Origin: Nitrosopumilaceae archaeon | GTDB taxonomy: Archaea; Thermoproteota; Nitrososphaeria; Nitrososphaerales; Nitrosopumilaceae | Length of the DNA stretch: 64,000 bases | Direction: 5' to 3' | Assembly (NCBI GenBank): GCA_965203465.1 | Contig: CBDBCR010000003.1 | Span: forward strand, 736,001-800,000 | Part shown: piece after piece, positions 6,593 to 54,386 of the stretch | How the letters are laid out: every line of letters starts with the position of its first letter | Numbering within the stretch: the stretch's first letter is position 1 | Position numbers and translations under genes: made by a program | Notes under the pieces: model-generated | What the model was told of the DNA's origin: nothing | Seen by the model: the letters and a program-made list of their open reading frames with translations, nothing else | The model's database searches: none

Positions 6593-7529
6593 ATGGGTCA
6601 TATGGGCAAACGCGGCGGAAAACTTACGGCGGCCAGTCTGTTTTCCGGAGCCGGCGGACTGGATCTGGGCTTCGAGCAGTCTGGAGTCCGCGTCGTCGTG
6701 GCCAACGATTCGTGGGACATGGCGCTGGAGACATACAAGACGAACAGGGACGGAAAGACCGAGGTGCTCGTGGGCGCGCTGGAAAAACACGCGAACGAGA
6801 TCGCCTGCTTGGCGCAGAACGCCGACATCGTGTTCGGCGGCCCCCCGTGCCAGGACTTCAGCCAGGCCGGATGGAGGACCGGGGACGGGCGCAGGGCCGA
6901 CCTCACTTCATCGTTCGTCAAACTGGCGCTGAAAATACGACCCGAGTGGGTCGTCATGGAGAACGTCAACACCATCATGTCGATCGGCAGGCGCCACGCA
7001 GAGTACGCGATCAAGGCGCTGGGCAGGGCCGGATACACGGTCACTACGAGGGTGCTCGACGCGGCCGACTTCGGGGCTCCCCAGTACCGCAAGCGCTTCT
7101 TCCTCATAGCCCGAAAGGGCTCGCACAACATGCTCGGGCTCGCCGAGTCCATAGAGAGAGAGAGAGAGAGCGCCGCTGACCGTCCGCCGGTACTATCCAG
7201 CCATAAGCCGCGGAGCCCGGGGCACTGAGTTCTACTACAGGCATCCGTGGAGTTTCGAGCGCCGCGCCATATTCAGCGTGGACGAGCCCAGCCCCACGAT
7301 ACGCGGCGTGAACCGGCCGATCCCCCCGAGCTACAAGATACACCGCAACGACGCGACGGACGACCTCGGCCTGGTCAGGCCGCTCACCACCGAAGAGCGC
7401 GGCATATTGCAGACGTTCCCGAAAAAATACGAATTCGTCGGGAACAAGACGGAGCGGGAGCAGCAGATAGGCAATTCGGTTCCGCCGGTCCTCGCCAAGG
7501 CGGTGGCCAGCGCGATCGTGAGGATGTGA
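6593..7529 (+). CDS. C5-cytosine DNA methyltransferase (M.HindV-like), frameshifted at an (AG)9 tract
   Basis: SLFSGAGG, GGPPCQDFS, MENV, PQYRKRFF in ORF 6593-7228. The target-recognition region (YYRHPW..IFSVDEPSPTIRGVNRPIP) and motif X (QQIGNSVPP) continue in another frame after the tract. Confidence 0.92.
7153..7170 (+). repeat. (AG)9 simple sequence repeat inside the C5-MTase
   Basis: Counted directly. (AG)7 or (AG)10 restores the reading frame. Confidence 0.95.
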
Positions 7530-7530
7530 C

Positions 7531-8514
7531 ATGGCCGACGAAAGCCCTGAACTGTTCGGCATACACCGATCCAACGTAGAGTCCATGATGAGCAAGAACA
7601 TATTCACCACGTTCTTTCCCGTGGCGACCGCGCTGTACTTGTCGAGCAAGGGGCGGCCGGTCAAATACCTCCGCCTCCGCGACGGCGATTTGGACATCGA
7701 CGAGATTCTGTTCGAGCGGGCGATAGGCGTGGATTCCGGCGACCTGCGGCGCGTCGAATGGAACAGTGAGATACACCCGGACGCATTCGCCAGCAGCCCG
7801 AACGCGCCTCCGATGGACATGGTGCCCACCTTGGACGGGGAGCAAAAGCTGGAATTCGAGGTCAAACTAACCGTGGTGCCTACGTTCAACAAGAACAAGA
7901 CTACCGAGCTGATAGTGCGTCAAAACACCGAATTCTCGCTGGCCGAGAGGATGGCGTACAGGCACCACGACTTGGTTGACGTGCGGCCGATAACGAACGA
8001 CACGCTGCGCGGCGCGATTCGCGACGAGAGCCGACAGCTACCCTTCATACTCCACGGATTGTGGAAGACGGAAGGCACCAGCATGGTTCTGGACGAGATC
8101 AACGCCACCGACGCCTATTTCATAAGCGACTTTGCGTATCTGAAAATACTGCTGGACAAGTACGACCGGCACCCGCGCGAATCATCCCGCGTAGGCAAAG
8201 TGGTGCGGCTGATACGCAGCTGGATAGGGTGTTATCTAGAGAGCGGAAGCATGCGGTACAAGGAGGACAGGGCCAACGTGGAGCACCTGAAGGTCACGAT
8301 TTATCCCACCGAACACCAGAAAGACCTGCAAAGAAGCTACGAAAACCTGCGCCTGTCGGTGAAAGACCTGTGGAACATAGTCCCCGACGATTCCATACGG
8401 CGAATGTCCCCGGAAAGGAGGCTCGACGCGGCCATGTTCGTCAACTGGATGATACAGACGATACTTAAGCGGGAAGAGTCGGCGGAAGCAAGGGACGGCC
8501 GAAGTTTCACGTAA
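7531..8514 (+). CDS. Type II restriction endonuclease, HindVP-like
   Basis: Starts 1 bp after the MTase stop. FEVKLTVVP and C-terminal MSPERRLDAA motifs resemble the HindVP family. Confidence 0.75.
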   Translation: MADESPELFGIHRSNVESMMSKNIFTTFFPVATALYLSSKGRPVKYLRLRDGDLDIDEILFERAIGVDSGDLRRVEWNSEIHPDAFASSPNAPPMDMVPTLDGEQKLEFEVKLTVVPTFNKNKTTELIVRQNTEFSLAERMAYRHHDLVDVRPITNDTLRGAIRDESRQLPFILHGLWKTEGTSMVLDEINATDAYFISDFAYLKILLDKYDRHPRESSRVGKVVRLIRSWIGCYLESGSMRYKEDRANVEHLKVTIYPTEHQKDLQRSYENLRLSVKDLWNIVPDDSIRRMSPERRLDAAMFVNWMIQTILKREESAEARDGRSFT

Positions 8515-8609
8515 AGCCGCCCGTCAACGAGGCCACGCGGCGAATATCACCAGTCCTATGGCGGCCACGACCGCCGCGGCGGCCAACTCTTTCGCGTGTT
8601 CGAGCGGGA

Positions 8610-8975
8610 TCATTCCGCCTTCTCAATGGCGGCGTAGTCTACCTCGTTTATCTTGACGATCCCGCTCGCGAGGTACGCCCCGTAATGGTACGGGTTCTTT
8701 ATGATCGACAGCGCGTCCAGCAGGCCGCCTATGCTCACGGGCTTTTTCATCACGCGGACTTTGCGCAGCGGTATGTGCTCGTCTTTGACTTGGCCGGCCG
8801 CGACCGCCGTCGCTATGAACGCGCGGCCTTCCTTGCCTCCGCGGTATACGGTGAACCTATCCCCGTCCCGGATATGCTTGACGTGCGGTGTCCGTGGGTT
8901 CACCGGCCACGAGGCCCCGCGCAGCCGCTTGTCTATCTCCGCGTCCGTGTCGTTCACGACCAGTATGTAGTCCAC
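8610..8975 (-). CDS. EVE-domain (PUA-like) protein
   Basis: W..KHIRDGDRFTVY..FIATAVAAG..KPVSI..LSII..GIVKINEVDY pattern. Confidence 0.75.
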   Translation of the reverse strand: MDYILVVNDTDAEIDKRLRGASWPVNPRTPHVKHIRDGDRFTVYRGGKEGRAFIATAVAAGQVKDEHIPLRKVRVMKKPVSIGGLLDALSIIKNPYHYGAYLASGIVKINEVDYAAIEKAE

Positions 8976-9283
8976 TGGCGGCGGACGGCAACCGAGTCGG
9001 TTTAAGCTTTGGGCTCAGATCGCGTGCCTAGCCGGGGCTACCCCACGAATTGGAAACAGTGCCAATCGGTTCGGCGCCCCGGAATCCGGCCCCTAGGCAC
9101 GGCCTCCGGGGGTTTTGGACAGCCGGGGAGCCCGGCGCGGGGCCTAGCCCGCCCGAGCGCCCGAGCCGAGCCGATCGCCCACGGGCCCCCGGCTCACTCC
9201 ACCAGCTCTGCCCCGTACAGGCGGGCTAGGTCGCGCCTCCTGGTGCGGAACTTGGTCCGGCGGTTCCCGATCCCGCCGGCCTC

Positions 9284-10400
9284 GTGAAGGGCAAGTCGCT
9301 GGGGCCCGTCCCCTCCGTCGTCGCGTGCCGGTGGAAGCAGGGCAACAGAGGCGGCTCCATTCGGGGCATACTGAAAGATGTCTTCGGCCTGAGCATGTGC
9401 AGGGCCGCCGTGTTGCACGTCATAGGGTCGGTGGCAGACGAGCTCACAGAAGAGCACGACAAGATAGTGGAGCAGGCGAGCGAGCGGTGTGAGGGTGGAC
9501 GACGAGACCGCGATGGGGCACACGTACCGCAACGAGCCCGTATCGGACGCGCCTGACGAGTCCCCCGAAAAGCCGCGGCCGCGGTGACCCGCAGCTCCGA
9601 TCCAGCACGACAGCTGCGGGCTAGGCAAGGAATGTGACAAGCTGCAATCGCCGTAGCGCCCCGCAGATCCGATCCAGCACGACAGGGCGATGCCGTCCCG
9701 AACCGCCCCGCCCGATCCGGTCGGCGGATGTACCAAGCGCAGGCAGGTCTACGCGTGGGGGCTCGTGACCCTCACGTTGGTCGTGGTGCGCCTGGCCTTG
9801 TCGCGCAGCGGCGCGATATTCGTGGAGCACTTCGAGTACAGGATCAGGGCGGCTAACACGACCGACGGGTACGTAGTCTACGACGTGGTCCTGGTGCGTC
9901 AGCGGTACTTTGCGCACATTCTCCGGGACGCCGAGCAGATGTCGTGGTCGAAGGAAAAGTCGGACGTAGAACAGCACGGGCGCCTGCTGGGCATCTACTC
10001 CGAGGCAAAGTCGCTCTGGCGCCCGGGCGGCGCGCTGGCAGGCCCGCGCGCCCGCGAAAACTACGCGAGGCGGGTTTCTGCCGCCAAGGAGCTGGCGGGC
10101 GAGTACAAGAAGGCGGGCCGCGAAAAGTTCGGCGGCAAGATGGAGCGCGCAGTAGATCAGCTCTTCGTGTTCATCCTGTATCCGGGCCTGGATCCGACCA
10201 ACAACGCGTGCGAGCGCGTCATGAAGTCCGTGGCGAAGCAGCGCAACGTGCGCCAAAAGTGCGCGACTGCCGCGGCCGCGCCAGGTTAGGCATCCTGATG
10301 ACGTGTTTTGAGACGGGGAACAAGCGTGGCATCTCGGTCATGGACAAGCTGGACGAGATTCTGGGCGTACAGCCCGCCCCCGAATATGTGCAGATCCTAT
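9284..10400 (+). pseudogene. IS66-family transposase remnant
   Basis: Fragments across frames: ILKDVFGLSMCRAAV, DDET, TTDGYVVYD, QRYFAHILRD, PTNNACERVMKSV. Multiple frameshifts, with an internal ~25-bp direct repeat (9589-9613 and 9661-9685). Confidence 0.8.
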
Positions 10401-10747
10401 TGAAGATTCCACGTATCTGGCGCTGCATCAAACACTATCTCTGTTCCTTTGATGTCTGATTTCTCCATGGTGTGGGAATCAAGCCTACCGTCGCCCACTT
10501 TGCATACAGCAACCAAGCCGTCGTTTTTTGGTATAGTGAAGCGCGTTACTTTGATCTCGGAGATCTTGATGATCTGTTCGTTTTTGTCATGATCCACATA
10601 CTCTATCGTGGTGTTTGGTGTGTCTGGTACCACAAACCACTCATTGTCAATTCCCCCGTCGCTGATCTCATACACAAGACCCTTGCCTTGTCCTGTTGGT
10701 AATCTCAGGCGCTTGACCTCGATCCCCTTCGGTAGCACGATATGCAT
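10397..10747 (-). CDS. Hypothetical protein, AT-richer than its surroundings
   Basis: 116-aa ORF with natural composition. Upstream AT-rich inverted repeat TATAACT-N8-AGTTATA (10771-10792). Confidence 0.6.
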   Translation of the reverse strand: MHIVLPKGIEVKRLRLPTGQGKGLVYEISDGGIDNEWFVVPDTPNTTIEYVDHDKNEQIIKISEIKVTRFTIPKNDGLVAVCKVGDGRLDSHTMEKSDIKGTEIVFDAAPDTWNLQ

Positions 10748-11077
10748 GGCAGGGCTTCCAGAAGCCGGCGTATAACTGTATAGTAAGTTATAGGAGTGTA
10801 GACTCAGGTCGATTTGACTGCCGTGGCTAGGCCGCTTCGGCTAGGCACGCGCGGCGTCGCTACGCGCGGGCTCGGCTCCGTTGCGCGGCGAAACGGCGTC
10901 CCGAGCCGCCGTCCGGCGGCGGATCGTCCTAACTGCGGCCGGGTCGGAGAACAGCCCCTGTTTGCGGCGCGCCTCCGGCAAGCCAGAGCCCCGCTTTTCC
11001 GCGCGCGCGGCAGGCGGCGTCGATCCCGACCGGCTGGCTCGGCATGCGGCTGCCGCGCTCCGGTGCGGCGCCGCCCG

Positions 11078-12907
11078 TCAGAGCGTGGCCTGCGCGTGAC
11101 GCGGCTCCCTCTTCTGCATGGCCACCCGGGTGGTGTCCATGATGGACATTACCTTGGGGCGCACGCCTGCAAAGTACTCCCCGACGGTGTAGATTTGGAC
11201 CTTGGGGTACGTCCCGTACTCGGTATGGTACACCCCGGCCTTGGCCGCCGCCTCGTACATGCCCCGGGACGGCTTTTCGAGGCAGATGAAGATCCCGAAC
11301 GCCGCCTTGCCCTCCATCGTCCCGGCCAGCTCCCTGACCATGGACGGATGCAGGTTTTTGCCCCCTTTTACGGACACCACGACCGTCTCGTACTTTGGGT
11401 TGCCGTCCGGGTCCCGGACGAGGATCTGGCCGCTGCCGTCTACGCCCCCGTCGCCGGTCTGCTTTTGGTTGGGGTGCACGTTCGGTATCAGACTCACGGC
11501 CCACGTCTCGAACTGGAACTTGTTCTGCCGGGCCAGCATCCGCGCCGATTCCGGCGACTTTGGTATCCCGCGTATGTCAGGCCGTATCTTGAACTTGTCC
11601 GACAGCCTTTTCGCGACGAGGTTTACGGCCAGGTGCGTTATGTCGATCCCCACCCACGACCGGTTCAGCCTCTCGGCTTCCATTACCGTCGTACCGCACC
11701 CGCAGAACGGGTCGAGCACCGTGTCGTCCTCGTCCGAGGACGCGCGGATGATGCGCTCTAGCAGCGCCTCGGGCTTTTGCGTGGGGTACCCGACGCGCTC
11801 GTTTCCCTGGGCCGGCAGCACGTCGTCCCAAAAGTCCCCGACGTTCTCCCCCGCGTAGTCGTCCTCGTACACCTTGCGGATCAGTTTCCTGGAGCCGTCC
11901 GGCCTCTCGACGATCTCAAAGTTCCCCTTGCGGTACTCTTCCTCCAGCTTCTCCCGGGACAGCCGCCAGCCCGAGGGGTGCGGGTTGGAAAAGCCCTTCC
12001 ACGTATAGCACAGGTTGGGCCGCGCCCCCATCCCCGGCGTGCTCCAGATGTGCGAAGAGTCGTCCATCCACCGGCGCCCGTCGGGATCCTGCTTGCTGAA
12101 TTTTTTGCGCCTTTTTTCCTCGGTCAGCGGCGCCTTGGGGGGGTTGAACTTGGCGCGCCTCGCGTCCTTTGCGTAGAACAGGATGGTGTCGCGGTTCCGC
12201 CCGAACTTTTTTGCCGCGTGCTGGCTGCCTTTTTGGCCGGAGGTCGCCCGCTTCCACGTTATTTCGTTCCTGTAGTTTTTCGGGCCGAACACGGCGTCCA
12301 TCACGACTTTGAGGTAGTGGCTGGCCGTGGGGTCGCAGTGCACGTACACGCTGCCGCTCTTTTTGAGGACGCGGTGCAGTTCTAGCAACCGTATGGCCAT
12401 CGCGACCACGTACGCGAACAGGTCGTTCTTGCCCACCGCCTGCCTCAGGCCCAGGACCACCCCGCCTATGCGCGTCCCTGCCAGGTAGTCCAGCGTGGCC
12501 TCGGATTCGGCCGTCCACGACCACGTGTCTTGGAACGCGAGTATCTGGGCGCCGGACTTTTTGCCGTCCTTGTTTTTGAAGATCATGTTGTAGTCGGCGT
12601 TGGAGTTGAACGGCGGATCGAGATATATGAGGTCGACCGACTCGTCTCCGACGTGCTGCCTCAGTACGTCAAGGTTGTCGCCGTAGTACAGTAGTCTCGA
12701 CCTGGCGTCTCGACCTGGCGTCTCGACCTGGCGTCTCGACCTGGCGTCTCGACCTGGCGTCTCGACCTGGCGTCTCGACCTGGCGTCTCGACCTGGCGTC
12801 TCGACCTGGCGTCTCGACCGCTGTGATCGGTCAGCCCGTTCTTTGGCAAGTGCCAGAGGCCGTTTTCCGGACTCCGCGCCTACCCGCCGTCCGAGCCTGC
12901 CCTCCAA
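11078..12907 (-). CDS. Beta-class N6/N4 DNA methyltransferase fused to a C-terminal Mrr-like endonuclease domain
   Basis: YYGDNL, LIYLDPPFNS, GYPTQKPEALLERII, VLDPFCGCGTT. C-terminal FQFETWAV..GDGGVDG..VSVKGG. Start is uncertain (TTG 12907 chosen; the ORF is open to 13075). Confidence 0.9.
   Translation of the reverse strand: MEGRLGRRVGAESGKRPLALAKERADRSQRSRRQVETPGRDARSRRQVETPGRDARSRRQVETPGRDARSRLLYYGDNLDVLRQHVGDESVDLIYLDPPFNSNADYNMIFKNKDGKKSGAQILAFQDTWSWTAESEATLDYLAGTRIGGVVLGLRQAVGKNDLFAYVVAMAIRLLELHRVLKKSGSVYVHCDPTASHYLKVVMDAVFGPKNYRNEITWKRATSGQKGSQHAAKKFGRNRDTILFYAKDARRAKFNPPKAPLTEEKRRKKFSKQDPDGRRWMDDSSHIWSTPGMGARPNLCYTWKGFSNPHPSGWRLSREKLEEEYRKGNFEIVERPDGSRKLIRKVYEDDYAGENVGDFWDDVLPAQGNERVGYPTQKPEALLERIIRASSDEDDTVLDPFCGCGTTVMEAERLNRSWVGIDITHLAVNLVAKRLSDKFKIRPDIRGIPKSPESARMLARQNKFQFETWAVSLIPNVHPNQKQTGDGGVDGSGQILVRDPDGNPKYETVVVSVKGGKNLHPSMVRELAGTMEGKAAFGIFICLEKPSRGMYEAAAKAGVYHTEYGTYPKVQIYTVGEYFAGVRPKVMSIMDTTRVAMQKREPRHAQATL
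12694..12819 (+). repeat. 13-bp tandem repeat (GTCTCGACCTGGC), 9 copies plus 9 bp, at the 5' end of the MTase
   Basis: Counted directly. Perfect copies abut the first conserved motif (LLYYGDNL). Confidence 0.97.
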
Positions 12908-13010
12908 CCCCGCGCCCCGGGGCGGCGCACTATTATGCGTATCTGGCCAGATGTTTGAAATGTCCCCACTCACGGGGACGGCTCGGATCCGGCCGCGCGT
13001 TCGCCTGTGC

Positions 13011-13397
13011 CTAAACCTCCGACGAGGCGAGCGTCTCAATCCCGTGGTCGCGCGCCACTTCCGACATGTCTCCATCGTCGGTGACTATGGCAAGCCCGTA
13101 CTCTTTTGCGACTACCACGTACGCAGAATCGTAGAATGTCAGCTTGGTCTTCATTCCCATGGTGGCCGCTTTCAACTCCATTGTAGACACGTTCATTACA
13201 TACATGTCTTTGATCAGATTCGTGTAGGTGTCTAGCAGTTTGAGCATGGCCTCTTCGCCCCTGCCAGAGTTTTTACACGCAGCGTTGCCTAGCTCGTATT
13301 GTGTTAGATCTAGCACCGCCTGGCCCATTAAATGCCCGCGTTGGGTTTCCCGTAGCAGTATGTTGAAAAACGCGCTAGCGTCGTAGAGCCTGTCCAT
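13011..13397 (-). CDS. PIN-domain (VapC-like) toxin
   Basis: LYDASA, LTQYELGNA, LTFYDSAYVVVA, IVTDD acidic PIN motifs. Confidence 0.88.
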   Translation of the reverse strand: MDRLYDASAFFNILLRETQRGHLMGQAVLDLTQYELGNAACKNSGRGEEAMLKLLDTYTNLIKDMYVMNVSTMELKAATMGMKTKLTFYDSAYVVVAKEYGLAIVTDDGDMSEVARDHGIETLASSEV

Positions 13398-15670: not shown

Positions 15671-16486
15671 CCCGCCGCCCCCCCGCGCAGCCTGGCCTGC
15701 ACGCCACTCACCCGCCTCCTCGCTATCCGGGCGTACTTTGGGGACACGTCGCAACCTATGAAATTCCTGCCCCTGCTCTTTGCCATCTTGCACGTGGTGC
15801 CCGAGCCGCACATCGGATCCAAGACCAGGTCGCCTTCGTCGGTCCACGACAGTATGTGCTCCTCCGCGAGCCGCTCGGGGAACACGGCCGGGTGCTCGAA
15901 TGCGTACCTGTCGCTGGTGGTACCGCCGAGGCCGACCGCGTACTCCCAGATGTTGGTCCGCGTCTTGTATTCGTTGAGCCGCGCCTTCACCTTTCGGTTG
16001 AGCGCGTCGGGCCCCTTGTTTGCGACCACGCCCTCGACGCCGCTGCGCGCGGTCTTTTCGGTCAGCGGGTTGAACGTGCGCGGCTTTCCCTTCGAGAGGA
16101 CCAGCATGAACTCGTAGCAGTTGGTGTACGCGTTGCTGCGCATGAACGGGGTGTTCCTTTTTCTGTATATCATGACGTCGTGCACGGCGAAGCCGATCTT
16201 TTGGAAAAAGAGGGCCTGGCGGAAGCTCGTGAGGCTCCGGCCCCCGTTAATCCTGTCCCCTATCACCCATACGACGATCCCCCCCCCCCCGGGTCACGTC
16301 GTAGAGGGCCCGCGCCGTGCCTTCAAAGTCGAATTCGTACCCGTCGTAGTTGCGCAGGTCGTCGTACGGCGGGGAGGTCACGGTGAGGTCGACGGAGCCG
16401 GGCCTGACCCGCTCGCGCATGAACCTGACGCAGTCGCCCGTGTAGATCCTGTTCTGCGCGGCGTACCGGGCCGCCGTGTCGGCCAT
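15667..16486 (-). CDS. Beta-class N4/N6 DNA methyltransferase, frameshifted at a G12 tract
   Basis: IYTGDC and LTVTSPPYD before the tract; HPAVFPERLAE and VLDPMCGSGTT after it in another frame. Confidence 0.92.
16279..16290 (-). repeat. G12 homopolymer on the coding strand of the MTase
   Basis: C12 on the + strand. G11 or G14 restores ..DVTRGGGIVVWVIGD.. Confidence 0.95.
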
Positions 16487-19711: not shown

Positions 19712-19765
19712 CTAGAACAGTCGATCTAGAACAGTCGATCTAGAACAGTCGATACCGAACAGTCG
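19712..19765 (+). repeat. 14-bp tandem repeat (CTAGAACAGTCGAT), 3 copies plus a degenerate copy
   Basis: Counted directly. About 65 bp upstream of the type IIG-like gene. Confidence 0.9.
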
Positions 19766-24217: not shown

Positions 24218-27200
24218 CTACCGTTTCTTCCGTTTGGCGATGGTATCCGAGAGGCGCTCGACGACCTCGTCCTTTCTGGATCCAAGACCCAGCACGTCAA
24301 ACACCGCCCCGTCCAGCCTGTCTTGATCCAGCGTCTTGCAGTACGACTTCCACGCCTTGGCCATTTGGTTCCTGCCCGCCGCGTCCAAGACCGCCATGTC
24401 GGGCACCTGCATCATCGCATAGTCTTCGACCTGCATCTTCAACGCGCCCCCTCCCATGGGGTGACCCACGACTTCCATGTGAAGCGAAAACATCGACGAC
24501 CGGATGTATGCGAGAAGAGGGTGCAGGTGCGTGCTGTCGCGGGCCTCGAAACAGACCCAGGTATCCAGCGCGCCGAACCTGGTGGTGCCGACTCCGTCTC
24601 CGTTTTCGACCACCTTGTGCCTGTCGTTGCTGATGGCGCTCAAAAACGCATCCGGCGTCCCCCGCGTGTTCATGTAAAACCAGAACCGCTTTTTCCTGAG
24701 AGTCGGCGATTCTGCCGGTATCTTGCCAGACCCGTCGGGGAACTTTCTGGTCTCGCCTTCCCTGATGTACCTGATCAGTCCTTTTGCGTCCTTGTCGCGC
24801 AGGAGATCGGCCATTGGCGAAGTCACTGCCAGAATGTACTTGCCCGCGTCGCTGTTGCGCACTTTTCCGCTTATCGTCGACTTGGGCAGCAGGACGGGAT
24901 GGAGGAACTTTTCGTGTATGCCGTACTCTTCAATTGTGTCGGCGCCAATCACAAAGTAGCTGTTAAATTTGGTAGATACGCCGCTGAACAACTTGCCCGT
25001 CTTGCCGAGCGCGGACATTTTCACCGCGGGTTCGGGTACGGCATCCATGAAGTGTACTGCCCACTTTTCGTCCCCGAACTCGTTCTGGCCCTTTTTCTTG
25101 TATGCAAGGTTTGAAAACAGGCCTCCCTCGTTCACGGCCGCGTATCTGACGACGTTGTTTCTGCTCCTCCCCTTCGTCAGTATCGTGATCACCGTCTTTA
25201 CGTCTATGTTCTTGAACACGTTGTAGTCCGGCTTTAGCATGACGTTGATGTCGCAGTTGTCCGCGAGCATTCTCTTGAGGGACTTGCCGTACGAGAAGCT
25301 CATCCAGCTGTCGCTCACGATGAACCCCAGCCTCCCGCCTGCCTTTAGCCAGTTCAGCGAATGGTAGTAAAAGTACGACGACTTGTCGGCCTTCTTGTCT
25401 ACGAGTCCCGCGCCTTTCAGCGTGTTGTTTCTGGGCAGCTGCATGCAGTCCTTGTCGGAGAGCCGCTCCTGCCTCACGTACGGCGGGTTTCCGATTACGA
25501 CATCAAAGCCGGGCATGACTCCCACCACGTGGTCCTTGTTGGCGCAGACCTGGGGAAAGCCGCGCTCGCCGGCCCAGTCGAACGGACGCTCGCCCCCGGC
25601 GCTGCGCGTCAGGATGGTGTTCCCCCGCCGTATGTTCTTCGACAGATCCGGAAGCTTTCTTCTGCTTCCCGCGATTTTGAAGAACATCGCAATCCTCGAT
25701 ATTTCGACGGACTGCTCGTTTATGTCGATGCCGAATATGCATTCCTCGATTATTTTTCTGGCCACGCTCTGTTCAAACGCCATCCCGAACGTCTCGTTTT
25801 TTGACGCGGCCCCCTTCTTGCCGCCCAATTCGACCTCGTACGCGCCCGCGTCTTTCTTCTGCTCCAGTATCTCGTTGTGCACGTCGAGCAACACGTCGAC
25901 GGCCTTCACCAAAAACGCGCCGGAGCCGCAAGCCGGATCGAGTATCCTTATCGACCTCAGTCTTTCCTCGAGTGCGCCCAATTCTCCGTCGTACTGCTCT
26001 ATGAGATCGCGGGTGCTCGTGGTGTCGGGTTTTCTCGCCAGGTACGGGATTATGGTCTGCCTGCACACATAGTCCGTGACGTACGGAGGCGTGTAGTACA
26101 CACCCATCTTCTTCCTCTCGGACGCGTCCGCATCCATGAGCCTGTCAAGATCGTCGAGCGACTGTTCGAATATGTGGCCGAGTATGTTTACGGTCAAATC
26201 TGACTCGAAATCATACCGCAGCATCGAAAGCACGCCGGTTATGATCGGGCTGAGGTTCTTTTCAAGTACGTCGATCTGATCTTTGGCGTACTTGAGTTCC
26301 TTTTCCGCGGTGTTCGGAAAGTACTCCTTGGGCCGCATGTCCAGGAACTGTGCTTTGACAGGCCACGACTTTGTGAACAGGCCTCCGTTGAACGCGAAAA
26401 CGTCCGGGTTTTTGTGTCCCTCCGCGAACCACCTGAACACCTTGTCCATGGCGTTGAAGACCACGCTGGTCGAGCCGTCGATCTTTTTGTTCCCGATGCT
26501 TTTCTTGATCTGATCGTACAGCAGGCGTCTGCCTACATAATCGTTGGATTCTGCGAACATCACGAAGATCAGGCGGTTCAAGAATGACTGCGCCTGGTCT
26601 ACGGCGGTGCTTCGGTCCACGCAACCCTCGAACTCTTTTACGAGCATGAGGCGCGTTCGGTGGAATATGTCGTAGAATTCCTCCTCGAGATCCTTCTCGA
26701 TCTCGTCCGCCGTCGCCCGGGTCGCTTCCAGCGAATTTTCGCCGATCATGTGCGCCTTTGAGAATATCCAGACGAACTCCTTCAGCCGGTATTCGCTGTC
26801 CCGTATGGACGAGAATTCGAACTCGTAATGCTGGCACCGGCCGACATCGTACTTGAACAGGATGAATTTGTCATAGTCGGTCACGATCCCGTACTTTGGT
26901 ATGATCTCCGACATGTACCACCACAGCTGGCCGACGGCTCCGTTCTTGTTCTGTGGCGTAGGCTTCCACAGGTCCGTGCCTTGTCCCTTGGCTTCTATGC
27001 AGACGGCTGTTTTTCCGTCCGGACCGGCAATCTGGAACTCGATGTCGTTCTGCTGGAACTTTACGTCGTCCGTCAGCGAATAACCCAGCACGCCCTCGAG
27101 TATGATTTTCTGGAAATTCGTGTAGTTCAACTCCTCCTTTTTCAACTTGCCCCTCTCGAGCATGTCCAGCCACTTGTCTTTGGCCTTCTTGGCGGCCCTG

Positions 27201-27277
27201 TCCAACGCGACGTTTTCAGACAGTTTTCTGATCGCCCTGCGATTCAGCAGCGTGTTTTGCGACGCCACCGCGATCAC
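24218..27277 (-). CDS. Type IIG (Eco57I-like) fused restriction-modification enzyme
   Basis: CIEAKG, ILGHIFEQSL, RKKMGVYYTP, ILDPACGSGAFL, DVVIGNPPYVRQE, C-terminal specificity region; intact, 1019 aa. Confidence 0.92.
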   Translation of the reverse strand: MIAVASQNTLLNRRAIRKLSENVALDRAAKKAKDKWLDMLERGKLKKEELNYTNFQKIILEGVLGYSLTDDVKFQQNDIEFQIAGPDGKTAVCIEAKGQGTDLWKPTPQNKNGAVGQLWWYMSEIIPKYGIVTDYDKFILFKYDVGRCQHYEFEFSSIRDSEYRLKEFVWIFSKAHMIGENSLEATRATADEIEKDLEEEFYDIFHRTRLMLVKEFEGCVDRSTAVDQAQSFLNRLIFVMFAESNDYVGRRLLYDQIKKSIGNKKIDGSTSVVFNAMDKVFRWFAEGHKNPDVFAFNGGLFTKSWPVKAQFLDMRPKEYFPNTAEKELKYAKDQIDVLEKNLSPIITGVLSMLRYDFESDLTVNILGHIFEQSLDDLDRLMDADASERKKMGVYYTPPYVTDYVCRQTIIPYLARKPDTTSTRDLIEQYDGELGALEERLRSIRILDPACGSGAFLVKAVDVLLDVHNEILEQKKDAGAYEVELGGKKGAASKNETFGMAFEQSVARKIIEECIFGIDINEQSVEISRIAMFFKIAGSRRKLPDLSKNIRRGNTILTRSAGGERPFDWAGERGFPQVCANKDHVVGVMPGFDVVIGNPPYVRQERLSDKDCMQLPRNNTLKGAGLVDKKADKSSYFYYHSLNWLKAGGRLGFIVSDSWMSFSYGKSLKRMLADNCDINVMLKPDYNVFKNIDVKTVITILTKGRSRNNVVRYAAVNEGGLFSNLAYKKKGQNEFGDEKWAVHFMDAVPEPAVKMSALGKTGKLFSGVSTKFNSYFVIGADTIEEYGIHEKFLHPVLLPKSTISGKVRNSDAGKYILAVTSPMADLLRDKDAKGLIRYIREGETRKFPDGSGKIPAESPTLRKKRFWFYMNTRGTPDAFLSAISNDRHKVVENGDGVGTTRFGALDTWVCFEARDSTHLHPLLAYIRSSMFSLHMEVVGHPMGGGALKMQVEDYAMMQVPDMAVLDAAGRNQMAKAWKSYCKTLDQDRLDGAVFDVLGLGSRKDEVVERLSDTIAKRKKR

Positions 27278-27334
27278 CAGATCCCGCCGTGCGGAACTGC
27301 CCGCACTACAAATATGGAGGAGGAATCTGGTTCG

Positions 27335-28243
27335 TTACGGTGTTCGCGTTGATTTAGCCAACGGTTCCGCGGCGCGGCCTGTTCCGCGGCGCGGCCTGTT
27401 CCGCGGCGCGGCCTGTTCCGCGGCGCGGCCTGTTCCGCGGCGCGGCCTGTTCCGCGGCGCGGCCTGTTCCGCGGCGCGGCCTGTTCCGCGGCGCGGCCTG
27501 TTCCGCGGCGCGGCCTGTTCCGCGGCGCGGCCTGTTCCGCGGCGCGGCCTGTTCCGCGGCGCGGCCTGTTCCGCGGCGCGGCCTGTTCCGCGGCGCGGCC
27601 TGTTCCGCGGCGCGGCCTGTTCCGCGGCGCGGCCTGTTCCGCGGCGCGGCCTGTTCCGCGGCGCGGCCTGTTCCGCGGCGCGGCCTGTTCCGCGGCGCGG
27701 CCTGTTCCGCGGCGCGGCCTGTTCCGCGGCGCGGCCTGTTCCGCGGCGCGGCCTGTTCCGCGGCGCGGCCTGTTCCGCGGCGCGGCCTGTTCCGCGGCGC
27801 GGCCTGTTCCGCGGCGCGGCCTGTTCCGCGGCGCGGCCTGTTCCGCGGCGCGGCCTGTTCCGCGGCGCGGCCTGTTCCGCGGCGCGGCCTGTTCCGCGGC
27901 GCGGCCTGTTCCGCGGCGCGGCCTGTTCCGCGGCGCGGCCTGTTCCGCGGCGCGGCCTTAGGCCTGACGACGCCGCCCCGTCAGCACGCAATAGAAACGT
28001 CGCGGCTTGACGCGGTTGTTGATTCATGCCAACTGACTTCATCTCTGAGCGCAGGGCTTTGGCCCTGCCGCGCAGCGCCCGCGCGCGCTCTTCAAGATCG
28101 CGTATTTCCGCATTGAGCGCTTTCCGGCGAGTCTCCGGACGCCCTTGCCTGCCGCAGCAAATTTCTTTCTGCCTGCCGTCTTTCGTTGTCAGGTAGTATG
28201 CGTATCGCAGTCCCCCCCTGGCGCGTACCACGTGCCTGCCCAT
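27335..28243 (-). CDS. Small basic protein (YxY..GxxKE..G beta-hairpin DNA-binding-like domain plus coiled coil) whose 3' end runs through the 17-mer array
   Basis: MGRHVVRARGGLRYAYYLTTKDGRQKEICCGR..EIRDLEERARAL resembles SSV1 integrase N-terminal/DUF6788-like domains. TATA-like TTTTTAA upstream. Confidence 0.5.
   Translation of the reverse strand: MGRHVVRARGGLRYAYYLTTKDGRQKEICCGRQGRPETRRKALNAEIRDLEERARALRGRAKALRSEMKSVGMNQQPRQAATFLLRADGAASSGLRPRRGTGRAAEQAAPRNRPRRGTGRAAEQAAPRNRPRRGTGRAAEQAAPRNRPRRGTGRAAEQAAPRNRPRRGTGRAAEQAAPRNRPRRGTGRAAEQAAPRNRPRRGTGRAAEQAAPRNRPRRGTGRAAEQAAPRNRPRRGTGRAAEQAAPRNRPRRGTGRAAEQAAPRNRPRRGTGRAAEQAAPRNRPRRGTGRAAEPLAKSTRTP
27364..27958 (+). repeat. 17-bp perfect tandem repeat (GTTCCGCGGCGCGGCCT), 35 copies
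   Basis: 595 bp = 35 x 17, with no spacers or variants seen; 86 bp upstream of the type IIG start. Confidence 0.97.
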
Positions 28244-28292
28244 GGCCGGCCGCCGGATCCCGCCCTTAAAAATCCTATTGTCATAGATTTTA

Positions 28293-28318
28293 TGGCAAAT
28301 GCTTGGATTGATTTGCCA
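28293..28318. promoter_or_regulatory. Inverted repeat TGGCAAAT-N10-ATTTGCCA, candidate operator
   Basis: Perfect 8-bp arms in an AT-rich region 50 bp upstream of ATG 28243. Confidence 0.45.
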
Positions 28319-28899
28319 CGCAAACGGTGGCATGGAGTTGGAAAGTCGCCGACGGGCGGGAGCGAAGGACGGCCGCCCGGGGCGAGCCGATGACCGTAGC
28401 CTGTTATTCTGAGTCCCCGAATCTTTCTTTATTTTCAATATTAAGATCGCGCGGCCCAAGGGGCGATATTGGCCAAAAATTGGTTCCGCCTAACGATCTC
28501 GGGCACGGTTGCGGCCGTAACGGAGGGTACGGAATGCAGGTCACGGCAAAGGTGTACGGCGGCGAGTAATTCGCGTCTGCCGGCCCTGCCGGCCCTTTGC
28601 CGCGGCCGCGCGCGTCCTGCCGGGGAAGATCCGGCCCGTCCCGGGCAGGCGAAAATTGCGCGTTGCCTCGCAGGACATGTTGAGCACGCGCAGAGCCGAC
28701 CGCCGCCTGTCCGTTGCGCCGCTCGAGCGGCAGTGCCGTATGCCGTGCCCGGCCCAGACCCGCATTCGCGCCCCCGAATAAAGGACCGGGGCGATCGGGC
28801 AGGCCGCGCCCAGTCGGCCCCCACCCCGCGAATTGGAGGCAGAGTCGGCTGGACGCCGCCAAACCAGTCTTATAAGAGACGACTCACAGGCCAGGCCCG

Positions 28900-33957: not shown

Positions 33958-35220
33958 CTAATCACCCAGCAGGCACTGCACATGCATCTCCCCTATGTCC
34001 ATCTCGCTTTCCAAGAACGACTGCACCTCGCTCTCCTCGGATGGGCGCGTGATGAGCGAAGAGCCCGAATCGCCCCTGCTTATCAGCAGGAGTCGGTCTA
34101 TTCCCGATTGCCTCACGATTTCGGGGCTGTGCGTTGTGATGATGATCTGTTTGCTGGACGATGCGTCCTTCATCATGTCCACCATACCCGAAAGCAATGC
34201 AGGGTGCACGCTCCTTTCTGGTTCTTCGATCACGGCGAGCTGCGCGTCTTCGAAATACAGCGCCACGACCAGCGCTACCGCGTTGGTAGTGCCGTCCGAT
34301 ACCAAAGCTGCCGGCAGATGCTTGCCTTTGGAATAACTCTCCTCCGTCATAAACACCAAGGACTTGTCCACCGTGCTTTTGACGCCAAGGGACTTTACGA
34401 ACGGGAGTATGTCGGATGTCAAGTTGTTGAATTGTCTTCTTTTTTCAGCGTTTGACAGTATATCCCTCAGCACTAGCGGAAGGTTGGAACCGTCGGTCTC
34501 CAGTCCGAGCCTGCCCCCTATGGCGGAGGGCCGTTTTGCTAGTTTTGGGGCAAAGTCGTAGATTTCAAGCTGGCTGAAGAAATAGCCTACCCACGGGAAC
34601 ATGATATCTACGACTATGTGCGATTCCAAAATGGACTTGTTCTTGGCGGTCTTTGATCCGTATCCGTACACTGTCCTGTATAGATTCAGTTGTTTTTTGG
34701 ACACGATGTCGATGGGAAAGTCGGGCTCGAAGAACAGCTTGCCGTTTTCCGACTTTATGTTCAGTATGCCGTCTATGCGCCCTTTCTTGTTGGTGCCGTC
34801 TATGCGCCCTTTCTTGTTGGTGCCGGTCATGTAAAAACGCCACGCGTCGGACAGGATCTTGAACCCCGACCTCTGGCCCATCTCTATTTCGAAACTCCAT
34901 TTTACGTGCGTGTTGTGGAGCACGTATTGTTGGTTGGACAGATTTCCGGGGAGCGGTATTTCCGGAAAGTCTATTTCCAGCTCGATCGACATGCGGTTGT
35001 CGCCGTTGAAATTCCGCACGTATTCGATCCCTCCCTGGATTGCCAGCGCGTCGGCCAGTCCCCCGCGCATGTCTTTGAGAAACTGAAAGATCTGCCCAAA
35101 GTTGGACTTGCCCGAAGCGTTAGAGCCCACTAGCACATTGAATTCTTTGAACTCAACGTCCAAATCTACAAAGCTCTTGAAATTGTGCACCTTCAGCCGC
35201 TTCATGAACGCCTCGCGCAT
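33958..35220 (-). CDS. ABC/AAA_21-type ATPase, copy 1
   Basis: HNFKSF, GSNASGKSN (Walker A), VSDGT signature, IEEPE (Walker B), ITTHSP. Confidence 0.92.
   Translation of the reverse strand: MREAFMKRLKVHNFKSFVDLDVEFKEFNVLVGSNASGKSNFGQIFQFLKDMRGGLADALAIQGGIEYVRNFNGDNRMSIELEIDFPEIPLPGNLSNQQYVLHNTHVKWSFEIEMGQRSGFKILSDAWRFYMTGTNKKGRIDGTNKKGRIDGILNIKSENGKLFFEPDFPIDIVSKKQLNLYRTVYGYGSKTAKNKSILESHIVVDIMFPWVGYFFSQLEIYDFAPKLAKRPSAIGGRLGLETDGSNLPLVLRDILSNAEKRRQFNNLTSDILPFVKSLGVKSTVDKSLVFMTEESYSKGKHLPAALVSDGTTNAVALVVALYFEDAQLAVIEEPERSVHPALLSGMVDMMKDASSSKQIIITTHSPEIVRQSGIDRLLLISRGDSGSSLITRPSEESEVQSFLESEMDIGEMHVQCLLGD
34767..34825. repeat. 27-bp in-frame tandem duplication in the ATPase
   Basis: Encodes GTNKKGRID twice. 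Confidence 0.92.
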
Positions 35221-36788: not shown

Positions 36789-37046
36789 ATGGACAAGACG
36801 TCGCTGGTACAGGTCAACAAGAGCGACTCGCTGCGCACGACGGTGCCCGCGAGCATCGTGAAACTGCTCGATCTGCGCCAGGGCGATCGTGTAGAGTGGG
36901 ACGTGCTGCCGGACGGAAACAGGTTCGCCGTAAAGATCGAATTCGTAAAACCAAAGGACGCGCGAACCAAAGGACGCGCGAACCAAAGGACGCGCGAACC
37001 AAAACCGGTCAGGGCGCCGCGTTCGTCACGGCCGCGGCAATTCTGA
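36789..37046 (+). CDS. AbrB/MazE/SpoVT-like DNA-binding protein
   Basis: SLRTTVPASIVKLLDLRQGDRVEW; GGAGG Shine-Dalgarno upstream. Confidence 0.88.
   Translation: MDKTSLVQVNKSDSLRTTVPASIVKLLDLRQGDRVEWDVLPDGNRFAVKIEFVKPKDARTKGRANQRTREPKPVRAPRSSRPRQF
36949..37003 (+). repeat. 16-bp tandem repeat (AACCAAAGGACGCGCG), 3 copies plus 7 bp, in the abrB 3' end
   Basis: Counted directly. Confidence 0.93.
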
Positions 37047-54375: not shown

Positions 54376-54386
54376 CCCCCCCCCCC
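54376..54386 (-). repeat. G11 tract in the leader of the giant surface-protein gene
   Basis: C11 on the + strand, 8 bp upstream of the TTG start; TATA TTTATAT at ~54452-54458. Confidence 0.9.

Follow-up and report, generated by a model that had tools for sequence, protein, structure and literature searches.

In a 64,000-nt stretch of a Nitrosopumilaceae archaeon genome (assembly GCA_965203465.1, contig CBDBCR010000003.1, positions 736,001 to 800,000; hereafter the window), a perfect minisatellite of 35 identical 17-bp units lies between a small putative DNA-binding gene and an intact type IIG restriction-modification (R-M) gene. When the locus was rebuilt in silico with 30-40 copies of the unit, the reading frame leaving the array had exactly three outcomes, each ending at a different stop codon, and one of these stops overlaps the R-M start. 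An earlier sequence-only reading of this DNA had proposed that repeat number sets where the upstream frame ends, and the reconstruction bears this out. The interpretation favoured here, to which a probability of about 0.5 is assigned, is that the array acts as a slippage-driven, three-phase translational-coupling switch of R-M translation.

The 17-mer array and the stops selected by its copy number

The array was located at 27364-27958 by Tandem Repeats Finder, with a period of 17, 35.0 copies, 100% matches, 0 indels and a score of 1190, in agreement with the sequence-only reading, which had described 595 bp of identical units each containing CCGCGG, GCGC and GGCC; all three sites are present inside every unit (GTTCCGCGGCGCGGCCT). 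The unit is counted 35 times in the 2.26-Mb genome and never outside the array, and a two-unit pattern gave 0 matches in both public collections, one of metagenome contigs and one of genome contigs. By its small-subunit rRNA this genome is archaeal, the archaeal model giving 1441.8 bits and the bacterial one 1088.5. The sense strand of the array contains no stop codon and no ATG, GTG or TTG in any frame. As a perfect repeat whose period is not a multiple of three, placed on the 5′ side of a methylase gene and ending 86 nt before its start, the array has one of the features of phasevarion-type systems.

The possibility that the array length is an assembly artefact, which the sequence-only reading had named as fatal to its proposal, was examined in public sequencing runs. 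In run X1, the flank contigs on both sides break off 30 nt inside the array, and array-only contigs have a word depth of 234-241 and the two flanks 6.82 and 9.45, a ratio corresponding to ∼25-35 copies; X1 is possibly the sample behind the genome assembly, and this estimate is independent of the assembler, not of the sample. Since the depth in X1 implies that number of copies, the array length is unlikely to be the assembler's invention. In runs X3 and X4 the R-M gene is nearly identical and coverage ends at 27226 and 27171, short of the array. Public runs containing this DNA come from metagenomes of sponge and marine origin and from coded organisms, and offer sequence at the contig level.

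The 1019-amino acid (aa) product of the downstream gene matched the Pfam families Eco57I (8e-31), N6_Mtase (8.5e-20), MmeI_Mtase (1.5e-13) and MmeI_hel (5e-6), and the motifs PD...IEAK, DPACGSG and NPPY were located by eye. The region 24218-27277 is thus predicted to encode a one-polypeptide type IIG enzyme of the Eco57I/MmeI-like kind, combining nuclease, gamma-class N6-adenine methylase and target recognition. Since alignments with homologues from the same order begin at query residue 6-8, and those homologues start 4-7 aa before an LFN motif, GTG 27277 (or GTG 27268) was taken as the start codon.

Because the period of 17 is not a multiple of three and the unit is free of stops, each change in copy number moves the stop. 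The stop used at the present copy number lies 57 nt before the type IIG start and in the same frame, as the sequence-only reading had stated, and this TAA (27337) shuts the R-M frame at every copy number tried, leaving the repeat outside the frame of the enzyme. A second TAA is used at copy numbers of 1 mod 3, and at 0 mod 3 the frame runs on to a TGA within the R-M start (Table 1). The resulting 4-nt stop/start overlap (GTGA, 27277-27274) exists in this phase only, not at the present n = 35. In the accessible part of a study of Haloferax volcanii and E. coli, translational coupling requires -4/-1 overlaps and is nearly abolished by a distance of ∼20 nt (PMC10666635); the three phases should therefore differ sharply, provided that leader and R-M gene share an mRNA. 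The same source describes gene pairs coupled by the four-base overlap ATGA, which the GTGA found here resembles. Known overlaps are fixed, whereas the one described here would arise in one of three repeat-number phases.

For the 84-nt spacer RNA, folding predicts a hairpin at -37.7 kcal/mol (z -3.62), a stability reached by 0 of 200 shuffles; both candidate GUG starts are paired in it and the present stop stands at its base.

On the coupling interpretation, a slippage-prone minisatellite would lie within a leader that is translated in the direction of the type IIG gene, starting at the small gene or at its internal ATG 28027. Gain or loss of one copy would shift leader ribosomes to another of the three stops. 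At n = 0 mod 3 the leader would end at the GTGA on the R-M start, in a geometry suited to termination-reinitiation; in the remaining phases, to which the present n = 35 belongs, it would end 57 or 76 nt upstream, with the start codons predicted to be paired in the hairpin. R-M expression would thereby be switched between high and low (or on and off), heritably and reversibly, in a subpopulation of cells. We infer that the leader is co-transcribed and translated with the R-M gene and that copy number varies, and likewise which phase is "on".

The frame entering the array belongs to a minus-strand open reading frame (ORF) at 27335-28459, within which the small gene starts at ATG 28243. The sequence-only reading had taken the array for the 3′ end of this small ORF. 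Its frame does run through the array, whereas the native protein ends earlier: four close relatives (73-81% identity) are 74 aa long and stop before the array position, where the window has CAA (28021-28019) at codon 75. Judging by these relatives, the array is not a native tail of the small protein; the missing stop and the stop-free array would let the frame continue.

Repeat arrays at related methylase loci

Genome tallies given here include three unpublished genomes (G254, G266 and G267), and no locus-level claim depends on them. Within the window genome, 3 of the 6 perfect short arrays with a period not divisible by three (non-3n) immediately precede methylase-type genes, and all three fall inside 25 kb. 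Two of them accompany the 17-mer array. One is a perfect 13-mer in 9.7 copies at 12694-12819, in the minus-strand ORF 11078-13075 and adjoining, on the 5′ side, the LYYGDNL motif conserved in an N6_N4 methylase. The array and LYYGDNL have no start codon between them; upstream starts can be used in frame at n = 9, a single TTG at n = 10 and none at n = 8 or 11. The methylase has an endonuclease-like C-terminal part, and an ORF that is PIN/VapC-like by sequence ends just upstream.

The other is element C, for which the sequence-only reading had noted an abrB gene with a 16-mer tail, an in-frame stop and an R-M gene. This layout proved correct: an AbrB-like ORF from 36789 enters a 16-mer in 3.4 copies (36949-37003), an in-frame TGA follows at 37044, and a second type IIG-like, methylase-type gene comes next. 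According to homologues, the conserved N terminus of that gene begins ahead of GTG 37122, in a segment whose sole start-like codon is CTG 37080; this CTG is preceded by GGGGGCGG and overlaps TGA 37081, at the place of the TTGA of relatives.

A comparable locus was found in G136, a genome of another genus of the same family (locus L036, G136:C1:484000-500000, 7062-11418), in the order small gene, leader, 10-mer array, mod and res. The stop of the small gene overlaps an ATG (TAATG) that opens a 21-aa leader, and this precedes a perfect 10-mer in 5.7 copies; downstream lie a type III mod-type methylase gene and a ResIII gene. With n = 4 or 7 the mod ORF would have its full length of 658 or 668 aa, whereas the present n = 5 leaves a product of 40 aa. 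At this locus and at the 13-mer locus of the window, the repeat lies inside the frame of the enzyme.

Homologues of the second type IIG-like gene of the window were present in 11 of 120 other family genomes sampled. Upstream sequence was examined for 15 loci; L133 was dropped, its contig ending there. Perfect or near-perfect 5′ arrays were found at 9 of the 15, 37-691 nt before the conserved N terminus, as 7-mer x79.7, 11-mer x9.1, 10-mer x5.2, 17-mer x2.6, 17-mer x2.0, 19-mer x3.3, 16-mer x2.6, 5-mer x67.6 and 8-mer x18. The other 6 of the 15 lacked an array, L135 having merely a weak 14-mer x2.8 at 73%. Long perfect arrays stand before type IIG-like genes at L131, L143 and L144, in two large genomes of another genus. 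A search for the 8-mer and the 7-mer unit in sister genomes recovered each of them from 1 of 5 genomes, its own; the 5-mer unit was not searched.

Regularities were then sought in a set of 13 arrays, comprising arrays A, B and C of the window, the mod array of G136 and the nine at homologues of the second type IIG-like gene. In all 13 the period is not divisible by three, and in all 13 the sense strand is free of stops in every frame (product of composition-matched shuffle probabilities ∼0.015, an indicative value); antisense stops occur in 3 of the 13. The stop-free sense strands provide indirect support for translation of the leaders. At the 11 loci of the upstream type, two of the frames leaving the array usually stop 0-42 nt past it, and the third, at 7 of the 11, continues to a TGA that shares bases with the candidate start, as GTGA at the 17-mer locus, as TTGA in L132, L134, L138, L143 and L144, and as CTGA in element C (TTG in its homologues). 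In L131 and L137 the third frame ends 0 or 1 nt before the start, and L139 and L142 have no such arrangement. For comparison, of the 1912 ORFs in the window genome that reach 300 aa, 283 (14.8%) have NTGA at their first start, and in ∼10% the +1 frame is also open. ATG codons that could open a leader precede the array by 2-78 nt in L131, L132, L134, L138, L143 and L144, and by 69 nt at the 17-mer locus; ATG leaders of 8-21 aa precede the arrays in L036, L131, L134, L143 and L144. The arrangement recurs in relatives too often for chance.

We tentatively suggest, at somewhat under even odds, that a three-phase translational switch with an NTGA overlap has arisen repeatedly in archaea of this family, and at numerous R-M loci. 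The parts of such a switch would be a short ATG leader, a stop-free non-3n array (5 to 19 bp, up to ∼80 copies), two stops after the array and a third on the start codon. N6_N4 methylase loci were also inspected, and 3 of the 30 best-scoring had short non-3n arrays upstream (10-mer x3.8, 19-mer x3.2 and 11-mer x2.6). Since these (L039, L061 and L057) hold sense-strand stops, they are probably promoter or untranslated region (UTR) arrays of another kind.

Known systems and competing explanations

Repeat-driven on/off switching of R-M systems is a hallmark of host-adapted bacteria, in which it yields mixed methylation patterns and phage sensitivity. In the type III mod phasevarions of Haemophilus, Neisseria and Helicobacter, 5′ non-3n repeats with units of 4-5 bp set the frame of the methylase. 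The 10-mer mod-res locus of G136 and the 13-mer locus of the window match this design directly, differing in their units (10-17 bp here) and in having archaeal hosts. Any action of the 17-mer array would go through a leader ORF distinct from that of the enzyme; because its repeat is outside the frame of the enzyme, the locus departs from the classical phasevarion design, and it fits a coupling switch.

Type II R-M systems may also be governed by controller (C) proteins, encoded by a small DNA-binding gene upstream of the restriction gene and preceded by an inverted repeat. The 17-mer locus is similar in that a small putative DNA-binding gene, probably co-transcribed with the R-M gene, lies upstream and follows an inverted repeat. 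C proteins have a helix-turn-helix, whereas the AlphaFold model of the small protein (predicted local distance difference test score 92.7) consists of a three-stranded sheet and a single long helix; no Pfam or NCBIfam family matched it, and the best Foldseek rows were integrase arm-type DNA-binding domains at weak scores (E 0.29, probability 0.82).

For Cj0031 of Campylobacter jejuni, the poly-G tract is reportedly located within the coding sequence. As far as the accessible text of the report goes, this type IIG enzyme is phase-variable through that tract (PMC4889913), and it shares with the present locus the tie between a single-polypeptide type IIG enzyme and a slippage-prone repeat. The differences are that Cj0031 is a bacterial gene with a poly-G tract, whereas here a 17-bp unit in 35 copies stands outside the enzyme ORF, with stops in all three frames between them, in an archaeon. 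A literature search found no precedent for a repeat-number coupling switch and no archaeal case of repeat-driven R-M switching, and the portion consulted of a 2026 review of prokaryotic methylases makes no mention of archaeal phase variation. This sponge- and marine-associated archaeon and its relatives display the bacterial layout at some loci and a leader-ORF layout at others. If true, the recurrent switch suggested above would be phase variation that works by termination-reinitiation and not via the reading frame of the enzyme itself, and the first repeat-driven epigenetic or defence switch described in Archaea. It would extend contingency loci to that domain and add translational coupling as a switching principle. 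Single-molecule reads from uncultured symbionts would then allow repeat phase to be related directly, and testably, to the state of the methylome.

Several observations weigh against the coupling interpretation. At the reference copy number, all 7 loci with an ATG leader are in a non-overlap frame, where an overlap in one of three would be expected if phase were random; either the uncoupled state is commoner, or the leader assignment is wrong. Sequences resembling a Shine-Dalgarno element were seen by eye before the TTG in L134, L143, L144 and L138, so that initiation there may be independent. The loci compared are kin, and the statistics overstate their independence. The spacer hairpin is not general, the spacers of five other loci giving z values of -1.2, +0.4, -1.2, -1.4 and -1.7. 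An AT-rich stretch (CATATTTGTAG) lies ∼30 nt before GTG 27277 and is a candidate promoter of the R-M gene itself; such a promoter would make the leader irrelevant. The closest family of the type IIG gene is without arrays, both at 20 Eco57I-type loci (0/20, within 4.5 kb upstream), which were the best-scoring of 92 listed matches after the window genome, G058 and a few short open frames had been left out and the lower-ranked G243 added, and among the direct homologues (0/4). No copy-number variation was seen in the public runs, which as contigs are unable to count copies per molecule.

An alternative that we regard as unlikely, and that comes first among those considered, is that the array acts as a length rheostat: a 5′-UTR, transcribed and functionally untranslated, in which array length and RNA structure would tune mRNA stability or translation in a graded manner. 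A precedent exists in hmw1A of Haemophilus influenzae, where HMW1A expression is inversely proportional to the length of an (ATCTTTC)n tract that forms a hairpin in the transcribed 5′-UTR (PMC12721329, accessible part); the two loci are alike in having a long repeat and a hairpin upstream of the start codon. Control of hmw1A is length-graded and RNase III-dependent, and the same part of that source describes neither leader translation nor a stop/start overlap, in contrast to what is proposed for the 17-mer locus. The array RNA is strongly self-pairing, 221 nt folding at -113.7 kcal/mol, yet this is only z -2.0 relative to shuffles. Copy numbers of 35 here, and of 67.6 and 79.7 in relatives, are far beyond what frame switching needs, and the upstream arrays of L039, L061 and L057, with their sense stops, would be unable to act through translation. 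A rheostat, however, leaves unexplained why 13 of 13 arrays have stop-free sense strands and non-3n periods, and why one of the exit frames terminates right at the start codon at so many loci.

It is quite improbable that the array has no regulatory role, being a neutral and recent slippage expansion in a defence island rich in insertion sequences, with the R-M gene served by its own promoter in the 86-nt spacer. The AT-rich box in that spacer would suit such an account, as would the absence of the unit from the two public collections, the two related arrays private to one genome (1/5 each) and the array-free state of the R-M gene's own family (0/20 and 0/4); other perfect arrays, 10-mers near multicopper oxidase and radical SAM genes, stand away from methylase genes. 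Neutral expansion does not explain why half of the perfect non-3n short arrays of the genome stand immediately before methylase-type genes in a single 25-kb span, why unrelated arrays occupy the same position at 9 of 15 homologous loci, or why the stop codons after the arrays are so regularly laid out.

A role for the translated repeat itself is very unlikely. In this scheme one of three low-complexity C-terminal tails of ∼200 aa, chosen by copy number, would alter the stability or DNA binding of the regulator and so the transcription of the operon. The small ORF does lack a stop before the array, the AbrB-like ORF of element C likewise enters its 16-mer, and an inverted repeat stands upstream of the small gene. 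Against these points, the small gene of G136 ends ahead of leader and array, and the ORF entering the array in L131, L134, L143 and L144 is a leader of 8-20 aa with no DNA-binding domain. A profile of the small protein retrieved 147 representatives at E≤1e-3, nearly all of them 65-90 aa long and tail-less.

The suggestion in the sequence-only reading of a decoy or methylation-sensing array of CCGCGG, GCGC and GGCC sites, or a variant in which the units bind the small protein, is highly improbable: each unit does carry three palindromic sites, and the fold of the small protein weakly resembles integrase arm-binding domains, which bind direct repeats, but the three sites are abundant elsewhere in the genome (2133, 41385 and 32551 occurrences) and not avoided (observed/expected 0.83, 1.28 and 1.07), adenine is missing from the plus strand of the unit although the enzyme carries an NPPY motif of the adenine-methylase type, equivalent arrays in relatives have unrelated units, and the candidate operator TGGCAAAT is unlike the 17-mer.

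Features of the locus, the small upstream gene and other repeats

Table 1. Coordinates of the array, the neighbouring genes, signals and stops, and of three long arrays at related loci (n, copy number of the 17-bp unit).
Feature	Position	Strand	Remarks
Intact type IIG R-M gene, predicted, 1019 aa	24218..27277	-	start GTG 27277, possibly GTG 27268
Spacer hairpin pairing both candidate GUG starts, present stop UAA 27337 at its base	27262..27345	-	RNA fold
TGA, n = 0 mod 3 (33, 36, 39)	27274..27276	-	overlaps start as GTGA
TAA, present n = 35 (2 mod 3)	27335..27337	-	57 nt before GTG 27277, in R-M frame
TAA, n = 1 mod 3 (34, 37)	27354..27356	-	76 nt before GTG 27277, 8 nt past array
Perfect 17-mer x35 minisatellite	27364..27958	-	sense-strand unit AGGCCGCGCCGCGGAAC
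Putative 23-codon leader segment from ATG 28027 (codon 73 of long ORF) into array	27959..28027	-	sequence
Small basic protein gene, 74-aa core common to relatives	28022..28243	-	stop missing, codon 75 = CAA
AT-rich TATA-like box ATTTTTAA	28266..28273	-	22 nt before ATG 28243
Inverted repeat TGGCAAAT-N10-ATTTGCCA, candidate operator upstream of small gene	28293..28318	.	sequence
7-mer x79.7, 558 bp	L131 897-1454		before type IIG-like gene
5-mer x67.6, 338 bp	L143 1043-1380 in gene orientation	reverse	before type IIG-like gene
8-mer x18	L144 1228-1371		before type IIG-like gene

The inverted repeat that the sequence-only reading had placed upstream of the small gene is present (28293-28318), and other inverted repeats were seen by eye upstream of distant homologues of the small protein. 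The position of the TATA-like box would fit a leaderless archaeal mRNA. A bacterial-type scan returned 0 promoters and 2 terminator-like sites against 3.6 expected; its model is unsuited to archaea and the result uninformative.

Four of the nine long representatives of the small protein that were scanned have its domain fused N-terminally to a DNA methylase (three N6_N4 and one D12), and because of these fusions the small gene appears to be functionally tied to methylase genes. In the fusion proteins (P0106, P0107, P0120 and P0136) a 70-aa small-protein domain stands ahead of N6_N4 and Dam-like DNA methylases. Distant homologues of the small gene lie back to back with a transposase-like ORF at 5 of the 7 such loci listed, and the two of these ORFs that were scanned were both of the IS240-type DDE class. 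Within the four genomes of the same genus, distant homologues of the small protein (30-35% identity) were found in one, G240, with no perfect multi-copy array adjoining them, and the R-M protein gave weak partial matches only, in 2 of the 4. Two matches from the close small-protein alignment (L034 and L035) were weak and not used. An 8-mer array in 13.8 copies in G184 lies 6 kb from a small-protein homologue and was set aside, no tie to an R-M gene being established. A 15-mer in L124 that resembles the 17-mer unit was dropped as degenerate GC-rich low complexity.

Elsewhere in the window genome, three perfect 10-mer arrays of 3-5 copies lie away from methylase genes (C2:140543-140592, C3:561484-561537 and C3:569339-569369), one ∼270 nt before the multicopper oxidase gene and one adjoining the radical SAM gene. 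Four further loci (C1:677922-678418, C3:339177-339476, C3:921576-921635 and C3:978423-978570) carry the 15-mer GCCATGGAGCCACGG or a close variant as a perfect array, in 33, 20, 4 and 9.9 copies, inside ORFs with weak extensin-like matches. Runs of G/C of at least 10 nt number 49 genome-wide, and many measure 13-18 nt, which is consistent with slippage tracts being widespread; the window itself has a C12 tract at 16279-16290 and a C11 tract at 54376-54386. It also holds a 14-mer in 3.9 copies at 92% (19712-19765), between two unannotated ORFs, and a perfect 27-mer in 2.2 copies (34767-34825), inside or adjoining an AAA_21 ATPase gene.

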